A stretch of DNA of 64,000 nucleotides, from assembly GCA_046759445.1 (NCBI GenBank), contig JBHICG010000002.1, forward strand, positions 52,763-116,762, written 5' to 3'. The position numbers and the translations under genes are program-made. The DNA comes from Candidatus Scalinduaceae bacterium. GTDB lineage: Bacteria; Planctomycetota; Brocadiia; Brocadiales; Scalinduaceae. The notes beneath the pieces were generated by a model. It saw nothing but the letters and a program-made list of their open reading frames with translations. It ran no database searches and was not told the DNA's origin. Positions 2,997 to 9,202 of the stretch are shown in pieces (the stretch's first letter is position 1; every line of letters starts with the position of its first letter).

Positions 2997-3260
2997 TTAT
3001 GTTTCCCTTTGAGTTCCTTGTTTAATATGATATGTAATTTTGTTTTTATACATAAAAGGGTCTGTAGAAAAGCATAGATGAACATACTTTATCTTATTTC
3101 TATATTTTGGTATTTCTTTGTCCAGAAGCTCTAAAGCATTGGAAACAATCTTAGGTTGACACCATTCTTTATTACTCATTATTTTTGTATATGCACTTGC
3201 ATATTCCTTAATGATCTCTAATTTAATCTCGGACCAGATTCCTATTTGGTCAAGTTTCAT
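2997..3260 (-). pseudogene. chimeric remnant: TcmP-like N-terminus fused to a radical-SAM-like internal fragment
   Basis: MKLDQIGIWSEIKLEIIKEYASAY resembles the TcmP N-terminus; PKIVSNALELLDKEIPKY...VHLCFSTDPFMY resembles the radical SAM partner; only 87 aa. Confidence 0.55.
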
Positions 3261-3386: not shown

Positions 3387-4988
3387 CTAAATCATCAAGC
3401 TATTGTAATACTTTTTTCTGTATTTCTGAAGAATAAAGCTATCCTTGCATGCTGAGCAGTTCTTTTGTGGAAGGGGTGAAAATTTTATCCAATGGTTGGG
3501 TCTAGAAAAGAGGTCATGATCTATGTAAGTGACATCTCCCTTTAGCGCTCTATCAGGAAAGATGCGTTCTTTAAGAATTTCTCCTCCAATGAGTATTCCG
3601 GGAAGAACCGCTGCAAAAGGTATTGGAACTATCAAAGAAGCCTGTCCCTCAAAACTCATTTGGCCGCAATGTAAAGATACCCAATCTGTAAAACGTTCTC
3701 CTAAAGATGGTAATGGAAATCCTAACCTACATTGGACTTCTTGCATTTGAGATATATGCCAGTCCTTAAAATATCCGTTATTATTACGCAATGTTTTTAC
3801 TTCTTCGTATGGGAGTCCTATGAAATTTGCTAAATCTCTGTCTGGATCCTGCTTATTGTTATTTTGCAAGCAAACATGACAAGCAGTTAGACCCATTTCT
3901 ACCCTTTTTACATAGAACCCTCTTTCTGCCACACCAGCATCAAATATAATTCTAGGAAGGTCCCACTGAATTGCTTGTCGAGTTTCTAGGTTGTCAACGG
4001 TTGAAATAAGTAAATCGAAAGAATCGTACTTAGTGATCTTTGAGAACTCTAAATAAGTCTTTTTATAAGCATCAATTTCAAGGTTCGGAAATTGATCAAA
4101 TAGTTTTCGTATTAGGTGGACTTTTGGCACTTTTTCCTTTGCATCTTTTCTGATGGCATATATATAACGATTAAGATTTGACAAGGTCACTTCATCTGGG
4201 TCTACCAAAACTACTTTACCTTGTAACTCAGGCAGACATACAAGGCAATATAGACAAGCACCCCCTCCAGCGCCAACTCCAACTGTAAATACTTGCCCGA
4301 GATCAATAGTTTTAGGTAAAGTAGGGTTATCAGCATTTAACTTAATTTGTTCGTACGAAAAGAGAGAAAAGTGTATTTCGTCTTCAAGTAAATTCATTCT
4401 GGGTAGTTCGCTTGATTTAATACCTAAAGTTGTACCTTTATATTCTAAGACTCTTTTGAATATTTCGCTTACCGCCCAACAAGCAGTTGCCATAGCTCCT
4501 ATTGGATTGAAGTTCGATGAAAATTCTCTGTCGTCACTTTTAGCCACTAGATGTACAAACCAACCGTCAGATGAGATTGAGACCATGTTAGGATGCCTTA
4601 TACCTGTTTTTCCTATACCTATTAGTACTAATGGCTCACAAGATAAAGAAGGCAAAATTCGAAGATTAACCCCGGTGGATATAATAGAAGAAAAATGGGT
4701 AACGGCTTCAGTTAGACTAGTATTATTTACTAAAGGGATAGGGGTTATAAGTCTAGAATTTCGTTCAAAGATTACATAAATTTCTGTAATAATTGGATGA
4801 AGTCGTAATAAAAGGTTAAGAACTGTAAAGAAAGTAAGTTGACCATTTGGATTAACAGAAGCTTCTTTTCCTAATATTACTATTATAGGCGCAGGCACCT
4901 TAGCCCATCTATGAACTTCTTGTGGGGAAGATGGCATGAGCTGCCTAAGAAGTGTCATCGTCCTTAAGCACTCCTGTTCAGATTTCAT
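3387..4988 (-). CDS. E1-like ubiquitin-activating (ThiF/MoeB family) protein with N-terminal extension, BilD-like
   Basis: VGVGAGGG, DPDEVTLSNLNRY, STVDNLETR, Zn pairs CHVC and CSAC, candidate catalytic Cys in LHCGQ; about 230-aa N-terminal region resembling an inactive adenylation domain. Confidence 0.88.
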   Translation of the reverse strand: MKSEQECLRTMTLLRQLMPSSPQEVHRWAKVPAPIIVILGKEASVNPNGQLTFFTVLNLLLRLHPIITEIYVIFERNSRLITPIPLVNNTSLTEAVTHFSSIISTGVNLRILPSLSCEPLVLIGIGKTGIRHPNMVSISSDGWFVHLVAKSDDREFSSNFNPIGAMATACWAVSEIFKRVLEYKGTTLGIKSSELPRMNLLEDEIHFSLFSYEQIKLNADNPTLPKTIDLGQVFTVGVGAGGGACLYCLVCLPELQGKVVLVDPDEVTLSNLNRYIYAIRKDAKEKVPKVHLIRKLFDQFPNLEIDAYKKTYLEFSKITKYDSFDLLISTVDNLETRQAIQWDLPRIIFDAGVAERGFYVKRVEMGLTACHVCLQNNNKQDPDRDLANFIGLPYEEVKTLRNNNGYFKDWHISQMQEVQCRLGFPLPSLGERFTDWVSLHCGQMSFEGQASLIVPIPFAAVLPGILIGGEILKERIFPDRALKGDVTYIDHDLFSRPNHWIKFSPLPQKNCSACKDSFILQKYRKKYYNSLMI

Positions 4989-5479
4989 ATTCGAATCTCC
5001 AAAGGTAAGATAATGAATCTTTTCTGGATTTCCTTAACAGGCAATTTTCTCCACCATAGTTTTCCTTGGTACTCGTAAATATAACAATTCTTTGAAAGTT
5101 CCATTCCTGAAAGACAATAGTTCCATACAACTATTGAGATGTAGCCAATATGAAAACTCACTGGATGCCTTTCATCACCTGTTGAATGTTCTACCTGGTT
5201 TGGGTGACTATGAACTTGCGCTAGTAAGGTTAAACTATGCCTTGAAAGCTTAGTTACAAGTCTTATCAAATCGTTTTGCTCGAGAGAAACTCCCTCTCCC
5301 CACTCAGAACCCCCAACAAACATAGTGGTTATAATAGAAGATTCTTGTGCTCTTTTACCAGCCCAAAGTACAAGACCTTCTTTACCGATTTCCCCCTTTA
5401 GTTTTAAATACGCTTCTGTGCCAGATATTATCTTATGAGAGATATAGAATTTATTAGCTATGGCGGTAACTAACTTCAT
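4985..5479 (-). CDS. JAB/MPN+ metallopeptidase (deubiquitinase-like), BilC-like
   Basis: EGLVLWAG...QVHSHP...STGD JAMM motif; overlaps both neighbours (ATGA). Confidence 0.88.
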   Translation of the reverse strand: MKLVTAIANKFYISHKIISGTEAYLKLKGEIGKEGLVLWAGKRAQESSIITTMFVGGSEWGEGVSLEQNDLIRLVTKLSRHSLTLLAQVHSHPNQVEHSTGDERHPVSFHIGYISIVVWNYCLSGMELSKNCYIYEYQGKLWWRKLPVKEIQKRFIILPLEIRI

Positions 5480-5904
5480 TGATAAGCTTTGTCCATTTCA
5501 ACTTGAATATCTTCTAATACCTTAGATAATAAATATTTCTTTACATTCCAAGTATAGTTAGTATGTAGAATCTCATGAAACTCTCTAATGCCTGGAATAC
5601 ACAACTGTGGTGGATTACGCCCCAGCGCAGCCTGAAAGGCTGATCCTAGTTTTGGCCAGAATTGCTTCCCTTCTTGCCTAGTCTGTGGATCAACAAAAGT
5701 AAAAGCAGGAGCTCTTTGTGGGTATCCCTCGTAATATAAGCGTGCCATAAATTTTAAGGTTGGACTCTTTTTAGGATACATAAGTACATATACATATAAC
5801 CCCTCTGGTGTTACCTTCCATCCGTGATAAATAAACAGGTTATTATGCGCTTGGAGACAATCTAATTGTTCTTGAATTTTGTGACTAATAACTTCACTTT
5901 CCAT
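5476..5904 (-). CDS. E2-like protein of the CEHH metal-binding type, BilB-like
   Basis: YPQRAPAFTFVDP (UBC-like YPxxPP core) and LCIPGIREFHEILH, matching the CxxxxxE(Y/F)H..H signature. Confidence 0.8.
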   Translation of the reverse strand: MESEVISHKIQEQLDCLQAHNNLFIYHGWKVTPEGLYVYVLMYPKKSPTLKFMARLYYEGYPQRAPAFTFVDPQTRQEGKQFWPKLGSAFQAALGRNPPQLCIPGIREFHEILHTNYTWNVKKYLLSKVLEDIQVEMDKAYQ

Positions 5905-6158
5905 TAGATCACCACTGCACCAAGAGGGGTTAGAATAAGCGTAGCACCGTTTGGCACATTTGATTCGCCGATAGTATCATCCTCAGACAGGGGATTACCA
6001 TTGAATATTAAACGATAGTTGTCCGCTTGTGACGGATCGATCCCCAACTTAGCCATAGTAGATACTTTCAAAGCTCGAATAGGTTGGTTCGTATTTACCT
6101 CAACTTCTAAAGGCTGTTCTGTTGCCGCAGATTCAATTGTTAGTATAAGTTTTTCCAT
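5904..6158 (-). CDS. single-domain ubiquitin-like (beta-grasp) protein, DUF2604/BilA-like
   Basis: YRLIFNGNPLSEDDTIGESNVPNGATLILT resembles ubiquitin [35 protein letters not shown] RBS upstream. Confidence 0.88.
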   Translation of the reverse strand: MEKLILTIESAATEQPLEVEVNTNQPIRALKVSTMAKLGIDPSQADNYRLIFNGNPLSEDDTIGESNVPNGATLILTPLGAVVI

Positions 6159-6236
6159 TGCATTTCCTCCTATTTAACTTAAATTAAAAATTTTTAATTT
6201 TTCATTAATCACGAGATAGAACTTGAAAATATAGTA

Positions 6237-6334
6237 GTTAATAAATATTTAACCATAGCTTAACGTACCTGTCAAGGGAAAAATTTACTAATAGTTAATT
6301 ATTTATTGACCTATCTTTCACAACTCGTTATACT
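6237..6334. promoter_or_regulatory. divergent promoter region with two 17-bp imperfect palindromes (candidate XRE operators)
   Basis: GTTAA-N7-TTAAC at 6237-6253 and GTTAA-N7-TTGAC at 6294-6310; plus-strand TTGACC(6306)-N17-TATACT(6329); minus-strand TTGACA at 6275-6270. Confidence 0.6.
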
Positions 6335-6362
6335 TTATGCAATTAAGGAGACCTAATAAATA

Positions 6363-6710
6363 ATGGAAGACCAACTTGCCAAACGAATTGGACATCGCAT
6401 AAAGAGCAAAAGAATTGAACGCAATATAAATCAAAACAAATTGGCTGAGAAGGTAGGTATAAGTCCCGCAGCAATAAACCAGTTTGAGAAAGGAGAAAAG
6501 AAACCATCGTCCGATGTACTCACTAGGATCGCAAAAGAATTAAGTGTCTCCACTGACAGTCTTCTTACTGAAAAGGGGGATGAAATTTTCGTAGATGAAG
6601 AGGTTAAAATAGCTTTTAGAGCATTCAAAAAGTTGGAAAAAGGGGATAGAGACATAATCGTAAAGAATATACAATTTCTTAAAGAACAAGCGAAAAGAAA
6701 AGGAAAATGA
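6363..6710 (+). CDS. XRE-family HTH transcriptional regulator (CapH-like)
   Basis: RIKSKRIERNINQNKLAEKVGISPAAINQFEKGEKKPS HTH_3 pattern; AAGGAG RBS. Confidence 0.9.
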   Translation: MEDQLAKRIGHRIKSKRIERNINQNKLAEKVGISPAAINQFEKGEKKPSSDVLTRIAKELSVSTDSLLTEKGDEIFVDEEVKIAFRAFKKLEKGDRDIIVKNIQFLKEQAKRKGK

Positions 6711-7486
6711 ACATAGCAAAACTTTACGCAAAAGATCTTCTCATAGAATTTGAGAACTTATCTTTACCTATAAATCCAAAGAAAATTGCTGAGGCTAAAG
6801 GGATTATAATTAAAGAAGATGATCTAGAAGGCTTTAGTGGTATGTTGCTTAAGGTAGGCAAAAGAACTCTTATTAGCGTTAAAAGAAGCATAAGAGAAAG
6901 AGGGAAAAAGAGATTCACACTAGCCCATGAACTAGGGCATTATCTTTTGACTAAACACTTAACACCTTCAGATATCTCATTTGAATGTACTGATGAAGAC
7001 ATACATCATTTCGGAGAAAAAGATAATAAAGAGTCAGACGTGAATGCATTTGCAGCAGAGTTACTTATGCCAGAAGAATTTTTCAGAGAAAGAATTAGGT
7101 TAAGCGATCTTACTTATGAACTGATAGATAGTCTTACAAAAGATTTTGATACCACACTTACGGCTACTGGTAGAAGATTTGTGGAACTTAGTTCTTCATA
7201 TGCATTAGTTTGTTCTCAAAATTCTAAAATAAAGTGGTTCCTTAAGGGAGAAGATTTTCCTTATTATTTGTACTCTTCAGGTACCGTAAGCGAATCTTCG
7301 GTTGCCATAGATTTTTACTAGAGAAAAAAATTACCTACTTGTTTTGAATTGGTACCTGCAAACGCTTGGATTGATGACAACAGAATAGAGGACATGGAAA
7401 TCTTGGAAATGGCTATACCACTTCCATACTATAATCAGGTTTTAAGTTTTTTAAGCATTGATAATTCCAATGAAGATAATGACTAG
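6707..7486 (+). pseudogene. ImmA/IrrE metallopeptidase (CapP-like) interrupted by an in-frame TAG at 7319-7321
   Basis: RFTLAHELGH, FEC and ESDVNAFAAELLMP; the same frame continues 54 codons past the TAG (RKKLPTCFELVPANAWIDD...YNQVLSFLSI...) to TAG at 7484-7486. Confidence 0.8.
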
Positions 7487-7750: not shown

Positions 7751-9202
7751 ATGTCTATCCTTAACAAAGCAGAAATAGTAAATATTAAAAATGAAGATGA
7801 TTGGATGGATGTTTTGTCTTCATGCGAAGGCCATTTATCAATAAAAGACTACCCCAAGATATCTGAATATTTATCGAATAATATCAAGACAGTATTTATT
7901 GAAAAAGATTATATTGATAAAGATTTTCGAGATACATTTTATAACTTCTATTCAAAAAAATTCGCAGATTACCCCAACAAGGCTATTAGACTTCACTTTT
8001 TTACTACCCTTATTAGCAACGATGACATTTATGATTTAGACAAGTATCAAAACCATTATGTTGGTTTTATAGTTATAAGGCCTACAAGAATTAACACAAT
8101 AGGTAGAACTATTTTAGATCCTTCTAAAATATCAAAAGCAGGCGGATATATTTGCTCTACAGATTATAAAGTCCATATTCTTGGTGCAGAATTAAATGTT
8201 AATGGGTTTCCTTACATAAGCCAAGACACAGACGTTACTGTTTGTGCTCATGCCGCTTGTTGGATGGTTTTTAGATATTTCAGTGAAAGATATCCAACTT
8301 ATGCAGAGATTTTACCGTTTAAGATTTCCCAATTAACAGAAAACCTTTCTTATGGCAGACTTGTTCCATCAAAGGGGTTATACCTTTCTCAAGTTGCAGA
8401 AATATTTTCAAAGTTCGGATTTTATCCTGAAATTTATATTAAAGCTCAGTATCAAGATAATTTTGACAGGCTACTTTATTACTATATTGAATCGGGTTTG
8501 CCAGTAGTTGCTGGACTTAGCAGACATAATCATGCAATAACAATCTTGGGCCATCTTTCTAATTATGAAAGATCTGTTTCAAATAACAGTGTAGAATATG
8601 TTGATGGTCTTATAATTAATGATAATAATCATCTCCCTTACCAAAAACTTTTAAGAAGTAATCTTAAAAAAGAAGGTTACTGTTCAAAGTATCACTTTGA
8701 AGATATAGATAGCTTTATCGTTCCCCTGTATGAAAAAATTTACTTTTCTGCCGAATATGTTGATGCTATGGCGGAAGCTTTGTTAGATGACACACATTTT
8801 GGTATTAACGCTTTGTCTCAGCTTGTAAAGAAAAACAACATTATAAAAAGAATATTTCTTACATCTTCTAAGTCCTATAAAATACAAAGAAGAAAACAAA
8901 ATTTACCTTTTAATCTGTCATCGACATACTGTGGAATGAATATGCCAAAGTTTATTTGGGTATGTGAATTATCCACCTCAGAATTTTACTCAAAAGGTGA
9001 AATTATAGGTGAAATTATTTTTGATGCTACAGCAAACCATATTGATACATTCTGTTTTTTGGTTATACATTACCCAGACTTTATAGTATTTAATGATAGA
9101 AATTATTTGACTTATAATCCAGAAAGGTTTATAAAGGGCACACTTAAAACAAAAGATTTGCTATCATATCAATTATATAAAAATAATCTAAAGGAGATAT
9201 GA
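7751..9202 (+). CDS. hypothetical protein with papain/C39-like Cys-His-Asp/Asn motifs
   Basis: SQDTDVTVCAHAACW, HAITILG and IINDNN; 483-aa intact ORF. Confidence 0.6.
   Translation: MSILNKAEIVNIKNEDDWMDVLSSCEGHLSIKDYPKISEYLSNNIKTVFIEKDYIDKDFRDTFYNFYSKKFADYPNKAIRLHFFTTLISNDDIYDLDKYQNHYVGFIVIRPTRINTIGRTILDPSKISKAGGYICSTDYKVHILGAELNVNGFPYISQDTDVTVCAHAACWMVFRYFSERYPTYAEILPFKISQLTENLSYGRLVPSKGLYLSQVAEIFSKFGFYPEIYIKAQYQDNFDRLLYYYIESGLPVVAGLSRHNHAITILGHLSNYERSVSNNSVEYVDGLIINDNNHLPYQKLLRSNLKKEGYCSKYHFEDIDSFIVPLYEKIYFSAEYVDAMAEALLDDTHFGINALSQLVKKNNIIKRIFLTSSKSYKIQRRKQNLPFNLSSTYCGMNMPKFIWVCELSTSEFYSKGEIIGEIIFDATANHIDTFCFLVIHYPDFIVFNDRNYLTYNPERFIKGTLKTKDLLSYQLYKNNLKEI

Follow-up and report, generated by a model that had tools for sequence, protein, structure and literature searches.

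An operon for a ubiquitin-like protein without a terminal glycine

The DNA analysed here, referred to as the window, is a stretch of 64,000 nucleotides from a Candidatus Scalinduaceae bacterium (contig JBHICG010000002.1, positions 52,763 to 116,762), and contains an operon that encodes a ubiquitin-like protein (Ubl) together with E2-like, JAB/JAMM peptidase and E1-like partners. The four genes are adjacent open reading frames (ORFs) on the minus strand, in the order Ubl-E2-JAB-E1, and their junctions overlap by 1-4 bases. The features of the operon, with the evidence for each in brackets, are as follows.

5904..6158, minus strand: Ubl gene (BilA-like), 84 aa, single beta-grasp domain (ORF, Pfam, AlphaFold2, Foldseek)
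5907..5924, minus strand: C-terminal tail of the Ubl, L79-G80-A81-V82-V83-I84, after strand beta5 (sequence)
5902..5906, minus strand: TAATG, overlap of the Ubl stop and the E2 start (bases and ORF coordinates)
5476..5904, minus strand: E2-like gene (BilB-like, CEHH type), 142 aa (Pfam, PADLOC, PDB alignment)
4985..5479, minus strand: JAB/JAMM peptidase gene (BilC-like), 164 aa (PADLOC, PDB alignment)
3387..4988, minus strand: E1 gene (BilD-like), 533 aa (PADLOC, Pfam ThiF, PDB alignment)

The first of these proteins can be called ubiquitin-like because it matches the Pfam ubiquitin profile PF00240 (E 7.2e-08, 32.5 bits for a cut-off of 25.4), its AlphaFold2 model has the elements in beta-grasp order with a mean predicted local distance difference test (pLDDT) score of 89.1, and Foldseek searches with this model return Caldiarchaeum ubiquitin (6fnn_C, TMq 0.80) and BilA (8tyx_A, TMq 0.83). 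Strand beta5 is predicted to span residues 73-78, ending at P78, and the tail formed by residues 79-84 is modelled with low confidence. The window Ubl gave no match to the PADLOC BilA model and none at E<=0.01 to PF10790 (DUF2604); among six of its relatives scanned with the latter profile, four score 28.0-30.4 bits (cut-off 25) and two score below the cut-off.

Translation of the ORF gives a protein terminus of ...NGATLILTPLGAVVI, i.e., ...TPLGAVVI*, and the corresponding codons are GGT-GCA-GTG-GTG-ATC-TAA. Gly80 (codon 5919-5921) is the last glycine of the protein and is followed by four residues. The codon for Ile84 (5907-5909) is directly followed by the stop codon (5904-5906), whose final A is at the same time the first base of the ATG that opens the E2 ORF. 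A preliminary description of this DNA had reported a Ubl without a terminal glycine, ending LTPLG-AVVI, and a TAATG overlap between its stop and the start of the E2 gene. The ORF and the bases bear out the terminus, and the reverse complement of 5902-5906 is indeed TAATG. Moreover, contigs of four out of four public sequencing runs contain no differing letter at the 3' end of the Ubl gene (5904-5928), which argues against an assembly error. This DNA may stem from two of these runs, X1 and X2; X3 (RNA library of a different study; contig 5730-5928) and X4 (contig 5817-6049) are less likely sources.

The E2, JAB and E1 genes resemble those of Type II Bil operons

At the sequence level, the only relatives of the E1, JAB and E2 proteins with solved structures are the Type II Bil proteins of Ensifer aridi, which are described in the Chambers et al. 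preprint (10.1101/2023.09.26.559546; this and the other papers are cited here from the sections available to us). The E2-like protein exceeds the cut-off of Pfam family Metal_CEHH (PF14455; 27.1 bits for a cut-off of 25), and matches PADLOC BilB (E 0.0062) and the BilB chain 8tyz_C in the PDB (E 0.0016). The latter alignment places LCIPGIREFH on LCMAGVREYH, and the motif residues are C102 (codon 5599-5601), E108, H110 and H114. The cysteine is kept in all 14 E2s that were aligned.

The JAB peptidase matches PADLOC BilC (9.3e-14) and the BilC chain 8tyx_B (1.4e-15), with E34 (5378-5380) on the mutated E33 of that structure and the HSHP...HST.D motif common to both proteins; in the window it reads H90-S-H92...S99..D102 (5174-5212). 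Both the glutamate and the HxH...D residues are conserved across the loci of the clade to which the window operon belongs (see below).

For the E1, matches were obtained with PADLOC BilD (1.1e-18) and Pfam ThiF (3.2e-14), and phmmer aligned its residues 90-530 to residues 77-509 of BilD 8tyz_A (E 6.8e-24), so that its domain architecture appears to be like that of BilD. The protein has a nucleotide loop G237-V-G-A-G241-G-G-A244 (4257-4280), a catalytic C441 (codon 3666-3668) and two CxxC pairs, C370/C373 and C511/C514. C441 aligns to BilD C417, which is named as catalytic in the Chambers et al. preprint. The cysteine, the two CxxC pairs and an NLNRY motif are kept across the clade. Judging from these alignments, the operon is of the Bil type and most like Type II Bil (BilABCD), none of the catalytic residues of its E1, E2 and JAB has been lost, and the predicted thioester relay is maintained throughout the clade.

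The last residue of the Ubl, and not Gly80, is conserved among relatives

Three close homologues of the Ubl, from other assemblies and with 65-82% identity, end TPLAAEVI, TPLGAVVI and TPLGAEVV. Close homologues thus do not all end in glycine, a possibility for which the preliminary description had left room. The closest of them (82% identity, TPLAAEVI) has an alanine at the position of Gly80.

These homologues also bear on the view that the gene is degenerate, which the preliminary description had entertained, or that its end results from a recent mutation or an assembly error. Such a view could point to the neighbouring capP gene, which has an in-frame stop, and to nearby genes that look fragmentary. 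It is contradicted by the agreement of the four sequencing runs, by the same terminus in the homologues of 65-82% identity and in the large and conserved family described below, and by the four operon ORFs, which are all intact and retain the catalytic residues of E1, E2 and JAB. We therefore reject it, giving it hardly any credence: the absence of a terminal glycine is due neither to error nor to decay.

A profile built from the window Ubl and its three close homologues was then compared with 1.84 billion representative sequences, which gave 454 matches at E<=0.001. The best 150 of these 454 are mostly polyubiquitin-like arrays. Of 15 single-domain relatives that were fetched (82-95 aa), 13 have an aligned end of the form ...[AP/x]-x-V/K-[IV]. 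The search of representatives also returned proteins of 670-1600 aa with tandem beta-grasp repeats (P0042, P0043, P0044, P0046, P0058 and others), whose junctions read ...L-[EDQ]-P-M-x-[IV]-x-V-K... and are free of glycine.

Related loci were retrieved with an alignment of 28 E1 homologues, which yielded eight loci from genome contigs and seven from metagenomes. Other searches were less productive. A scan of genome contigs with the single window E1 detected no relative, and a viral scan detected one weak locus, L023, without a recognisable Ubl operon. Searches of whole genomes gave matches in three of 401 genomes of the phylum of the window at E<=1e-10, its own genome included, and in three of 401 genomes of the class of genome G401 at E<=1e-12, G401 included; both yielded only the contrast loci L003, L004, L021 and L022.

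Besides the window, 11 loci have their genes in the order Ubl-E2-JAB-E1. Archaea and five bacterial phyla are represented among them; the sources are Nitrosotenuis, two haloarchaea, an alphaproteobacterium, Gemmatimonadales, Phycisphaerales, Chloroflexi and four metagenome contigs. The Ubls of these loci terminate in APLQTQVI, EPEPEVI, ERKEVTKI, ERKDVVKI, ERREVVKI, ERREVVKV or VPRPEVI. When the C-termini of the Ubls from syntenic operons are aligned, the comparison put forward in the preliminary description, 11 of 12 end in Ile or Val and have no glycine among the last eight residues. The exception is the twelfth locus, L004, where the Ubl ends GAGAGG, the E1 is distant (25% identity) and the JAB gene is on the opposite strand.

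The last column of an alignment of 27 Ubl sequences, named A3, contains 23 Ile and 4 Val. The positions preceding it in the tail vary (V/E/K/Q/T), and the column of Gly80 contains glycine in 5 of the 27 sequences. A search with the A3 profile returned 256 proteins at E<=1e-5. With the best 120 of these 256 matches as its scope, the examination covered 122 relatives, 117 of them new and 5 of them seeds. Within this set, 115 relatives stop exactly at the last position of the profile, a position that is occupied by Ile in 115 and by Val in 7 of the 122. The remaining seven extend past it by 2-4 residues (AQ, SR, AR, SQ, SSNG, CR). Any glycine among the last eight residues was found in 7 of the 122 relatives and none in 115. 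Further overhangs after Ile/Val are RE, QYI and KHHG, plus WTP on a three-domain form. Hence, as far as these alignments reach, Gly80 is not the conserved feature of the Ubls, and the last residue is. They delineate a distinct clade, widespread in bacteria and archaea, with a conserved C-terminus that is a beta-branched aliphatic residue, Ile or less often Val.

Several variations were observed in the partner proteins of this clade. The E1s of the haloarchaeal loci L006 and L010 and of the metagenomic L013, which groups with both in the tree, are about 726 aa long, i.e., they extend about 200 residues further C-terminally than the 533-aa E1 of the window. In the subclade whose Ubls end ...V-V-K-I, the E1s of L007, L008, L015, L016 and L018 have A-A-V-H aligned to S-T-V-D of the window, while L009 keeps the Asp. 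We take the Asp of this motif, replaced by His in those five loci, to be a residue that binds Mg in E1 enzymes. The JABs of L007, L008, L009, L015, L016 and L018 have a JAMM motif H-[ST]-H-P-[PH]-G-x-x-G-Q-N-x-[VF]-D, in which Asn replaces the canonical Ser. Finally, a 2.9-kb contig (L017:1-2055) encodes a clade-type E1 with a GVGAGGGA loop, and no Ubl, E2 or JAB gene was recognisable in the 2 kb upstream.

Ile84 aligns with the reactive glycine of BilA

A hidden Markov model alignment places T77 of the window Ubl on S90 of E. aridi BilA, which, as printed in the Chambers et al. preprint, ends ...TLFLSLKAGVAG followed by A98. Ungapped extension from T77/S90 puts I84 on the reactive G97 of BilA, and G80 on A93. 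The number of residues after beta5 is six in the window Ubl and six in mature E. aridi BilA. The same projection against ubiquitin places I84 one residue past G76.

The overhangs are comparable as well. According to the Chambers et al. preprint, Type II BilA proteins have "up to nine residues" after the conserved glycine, and the Hör et al. preprint (10.1101/2023.09.04.556158) gives "2-9 aa overhangs" after the conserved glycine of Type I BilA. In the aligned sequences, the overhangs past the conserved Ile/Val mirror those past the reactive glycine of BilA. Three points of agreement with BilA-type systems, namely its position, the overhang pattern and the intact relay, make the terminal Ile/Val resemble the reactive residue.

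Two explanations in which the tail is trimmed can be judged from these results. According to the preliminary description, the JAB might remove AVVI and expose Gly80, after which a short ...TPLG end would be activated canonically. Pre-processing by a JAB that exposes a glycine is known for Type II Bil (Chambers et al. preprint), and the window Ubl as well as two of its three close homologues do have a glycine four residues from the end. However, the closest homologue has Ala at this position, glycine occupies it in only 5 of the 27 sequences of A3, 11 of the 12 syntenic Ubls have no glycine among their last eight residues, and a cut at Gly80 would leave two residues past beta5, against six in mature BilA. 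The evidence therefore speaks against this proposal, which we consider highly improbable; Gly80 is a variable residue inside a flexible tail.

Alternatively, a peptidase might cut the tail elsewhere than at Gly80, for instance by taking off one or a few terminal residues, and activation would then concern the residue exposed by this cut. This would account for a JAB that is always present, it has the established pre-processing of Type II Bil as a parallel (Chambers et al. preprint), and the positional alignment of the tails could be off by about one residue. Yet 115 of the 122 proteins examined (best 120 of 256 matches plus seeds) end exactly at the invariant Ile/Val, and if the last residue were discarded, it would be surprising to find it better conserved than any other position of the tail, with variable ones before it. 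We regard trimming elsewhere as improbable.

The nucleotide loop of the E1

Position 5 of the G-x-G-x-x-G nucleotide loop is Gly in all 30 close homologues of the window E1 (P0005-P0034), most of which have the sequence GVGAGGGA, and also in all 13 clade loci that cover this region. The same position is Ile, Val or Leu in all 6 distant homologues, in L003, L004, L019 and L021, and in E. aridi BilD. Ubl ends outside the clade could be read for four loci, and all of them are in or near glycine: E. aridi (G97 followed by A), L004 (GG), L019 (VNRG) and L021 (KGG followed by AL). The E1s were also placed in a quick maximum-likelihood tree with 48 rows, from which P0025 and P0034 (<430 aa) and the incomplete E1s of L011, L014, L017 and L018 were excluded. 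In this tree, the 38 E1s with a Gly loop form one side of a single branch with a Shimodaira-Hasegawa-like approximate likelihood ratio test (SH-aLRT) value of 98. One may speculate that the loop glycine makes room for the side chain of Ile or Val, in the manner of a "bump and hole" pair.

Ile84 as the probable reactive residue

The preliminary description had listed non-canonical conjugation chemistry among its alternatives, and this is the one that the family-wide Ile/Val at the position of the reactive glycine of BilA favours. In our reading, Ile84 itself is probably activated and conjugated (a probability of roughly 0.6). The course of events that we infer, in which the activation and conjugation of Ile84, the role of the JAB and that of the loop are all conjectural, would be as follows. 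The Ubl would be made in mature form, as a complete modifier; because the stop codon directly follows Ile84, no trimming would be needed. The earlier statement that JAB peptidases trim pro-forms thus holds for Type II Bil (Chambers et al. preprint), but such trimming is probably not needed for the window Ubl. The six-residue tail, L79-I84, would reach the adenylation site of the E1, as the tail of BilA does. The E1 would adenylate the carboxylate of Ile84 and take the Ubl onto Cys441, from where it would pass to Cys102 of the E2 and then to a lysine of the target. The JAB would reverse the conjugates and, in relatives with an overhang of 2-4 residues, cut after the Ile/Val. More tentatively, and with some doubt, it can be proposed that the clade as a whole switched the reactive end of its Ubl from Gly to Ile/Val, and that the E1 adenylates and thioesterifies this end directly, helped by the swap from Ile/Val to Gly in the loop.

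A number of points weigh against the activation of Ile84. The strongest is that, to our knowledge, there is no precedent for a Ubl E1 that activates an aliphatic Ubl terminus, and every characterised Ubl conjugation system that we know of uses Gly. The "bump and hole" idea, with its presumed contact between loop position 5 and the Ubl terminus, is a hypothesis only, and the correlation between loop and terminus has no statistical weight, because the Gly-loop E1s represent a single evolutionary event. The match between I84 and G97 is an ungapped extension through a flexible tail and could be one residue off. Since the A3 profile includes the tail, its top matches may be enriched for the Ile/Val end, and among the 15 single-domain relatives one ends PPAGG and another EGEGHSYM. 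The in-frame TAG of capP may mean that regulation is impaired at the window locus. Lastly, the G163L mutation of Type I Bil abolishes defence (Hör et al. preprint, 10.1101/2023.09.04.556158), and because this mutant is dead, a bulky terminus is known to be incompatible with a related E1.

Some of these points lend themselves to another explanation, in which the Ubl is not conjugated through its C-terminus and the conserved hydrophobic end acts non-covalently. It might, for example, plug the active site of the E1 or JAB or dock there as a peptide, or serve as an adaptor. A Ubl without a glycine, and the lack of a precedent for activation of an aliphatic end, would both agree with such a role. 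Hub1, a eukaryotic Ubl, works without a Gly-Gly end. The strict free Ile/Val end would also fit a docking motif that consists of a carboxylate plus a side chain, and Ala98 of E. aridi blocks ATP binding in the E1 site, so that a tail can occupy this site unproductively (Chambers et al. preprint). Against this stand the clade-wide E1 Cys, E2 Cys and adenylation motifs, which are hard to explain without a thioester relay, as well as the overhangs past Ile/Val, whose pattern mirrors that of reactive glycines, and a tail of the same length as that of mature BilA. A purely non-covalent role therefore seems unlikely to us.

Comparison with known systems

The closest known system is Type II Bil (Ensifer aridi TW10; Chambers et al. 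preprint, 10.1101/2023.09.26.559546; PDB 8TYX-8TZ0), formerly known as the CEHH or 6C operons. The gene order Ubl-E2-JAB-E1 is the same, the Ubl consists of one beta-grasp domain, the C-E-H-H residues are present in the E2, the JAB has the matching Glu and HxH...D, and the E1s align over nearly their full length including the catalytic Cys. That preprint describes CapH/CapP regulators next to a number of Type II Bil operons, and the window has a CapH/CapP-like pair, in which the capP reading frame is interrupted. The systems differ in that the conserved terminal position of the window clade is Ile/Val, with Gly absent from most members, and in the E1 loop, which is GAGGGA in the window and GAIAHGA in E. 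aridi BilD; the similarity is also low (E-values of 6.8e-24 for the E1 and 1.6e-3 for the E2). Type II Bil Ubls have a universally conserved reactive glycine followed by 0-9 variable residues, whereas in the window clade glycine occupies the candidate column in 5 of 27 sequences. With four defining features of Type II Bil present and the conserved reactive glycine missing, the window system is, by its predicted proteins, a variant and not a member of Type II Bil. Nitrosotenuis, haloarchaea, Gemmatimonadales, Phycisphaerales and Chloroflexi are not among the species names of Table S1 of the Chambers et al. preprint; this table gives IMG gene ids without sequences, so that the Ubl termini in it are not directly comparable.

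Type I Bil (Collimonas sp. OK412), which the Hör et al. preprint (10.1101/2023.09.04.556158) describes as an anti-phage Ubl conjugation system, shares the four functions with the window operon, whose JAB and E1 match PADLOC BilC and BilD. It differs in its Ubl, which has two beta-grasp domains where that of the window has one. The Ubl of Caldiarchaeum is a pro-form that is trimmed to a Gly-Gly end, and its operon includes a RING E3. The ubiquitin/Rpn11-homologue system of Caldiarchaeum subterraneum (PDB 6FNN, 6FNO) resembles that of the window in combining a JAMM peptidase with a prokaryotic Ubl, and gave the best structural match (TMq 0.80-0.82); in contrast to its operon, no E3 was seen at the window locus.

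Bub (Type I/II; formerly 6E/DUF6527; PMC11601596) likewise comprises diverged bacterial Ubl, E1 and E2 proteins and deviates from the textbook chemistry. The deviations are different ones, however: in Bub the enzyme nucleophiles are changed (Tyr and Ser oxyesters) and the C-terminal Gly (G229) is kept, according to the sections of that paper available to us, whereas the window system keeps the Cys nucleophiles, changes the Ubl terminus and has no DUF6527 gene. Type II CBASS (an antiphage signalling system based on cyclic oligonucleotides) with its Cap2/Cap3 proteins offers a case of E1-type adenylation of a C-terminus other than Gly-Gly, and Cap2 shares the E1-E2-JAB logic. The substrate of Cap2 is a CD-NTase and not a beta-grasp Ubl, and Cap2 is an E2-E1 fusion. 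Another E1-like enzyme, MccB, adenylates the C-terminus of a heptapeptide, which has no classical Ubl Gly-Gly.

Both Bil preprints (10.1101/2023.09.26.559546 and 10.1101/2023.09.04.556158), in the sections available, treat the C-terminal Gly as obligatory and as a defining feature. Iyer et al. 2006 noted that some new ubiquitin-related families have no conserved terminal glycine, and in the part of that work available to us these were not tied to E1/E2/JAB operons. In the literature that we searched, which left most subscription journals outside, no description was found of an Ile/Val-ended or non-glycine Ubl family, either under DUF2604 or in Bil work from 2024 onward.

At least 256 bacterial and archaeal proteins with intact E1/E2/JAB partners and an invariant Ile/Val end challenge the rule that the glycine is obligatory. 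There are two ways to account for them, an E1 that is able to activate a bulky beta-branched terminus or a different mechanism for these Ubls, and both outcomes would widen what counts as a ubiquitin-type system. The rule by which Ubls are recognised in genomes would also change, as searches that demand a terminal Gly miss the Ile/Val-ended family. If Ile/Val is activated, targets would carry an Ile-lysine isopeptide. This linkage would be orthogonal to the cell's other Ubl systems, and it might resist deconjugating enzymes that are specific for glycine, among them those of phages. The Ile/Val system would also offer a naturally orthogonal tagging pair.

Divergent regulator genes and other surroundings of the operon

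The following features lie next to the Ubl gene.

6159..6362, no strand assigned: divergent intergenic region with two 23-nt AT-rich, partly palindromic sites (repeat search)
6363..6710, plus strand: CapH-like helix-turn-helix (HTH) regulator gene, 115 aa (PADLOC capH 3.2e-17; Pfam HTH_3 8.2e-16)
6707..7486, plus strand: CapP-like M78 peptidase gene (PADLOC capP 4.5e-50, profile positions 6-196 of 242)

The copies of the 23-nt site are located at 6232-6254 and 6289-6311, between the Ubl gene and capH, and have a GTTAA...TTAAC core. They are possible operators. The capP reading frame is closed after 204 aa by an in-frame TAG (7319-7321); the 54 in-frame codons that follow it (7322-7486) weakly match positions 207-241 of the 242 in the capP profile (E 0.0076). 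It may therefore be a nonsense-interrupted regulator gene.

Contigs of the RNA library X3 cover 5441-5928 and 6288-6400, i.e., the complete E2 gene together with the 5' end of that for the JAB, the 3' end of the Ubl gene and the start of capH, with a single C>T difference at 5487. They hint that the locus exists, and is perhaps expressed, in another sample, although transcription is not proven thereby.

Downstream of capP, a 483-aa ORF (7751-9202, plus strand) was considered as an extra peptidase of the system and rejected, as neither Pfam nor PADLOC gave a match for it and the related loci compared contained no homologue. By eye it resembles a papain-like peptidase, with a Cys motif (...VCAHAACW...) and later histidines, a resemblance that is unverified. 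On the other side, just downstream of the E1 gene, an ORF of 87 aa (2997-3260, minus strand) looks like a gene fragment; only its first approximately 30 residues match PADLOC PDC-M41A models, which are 275-298 positions long (E 5e-05).

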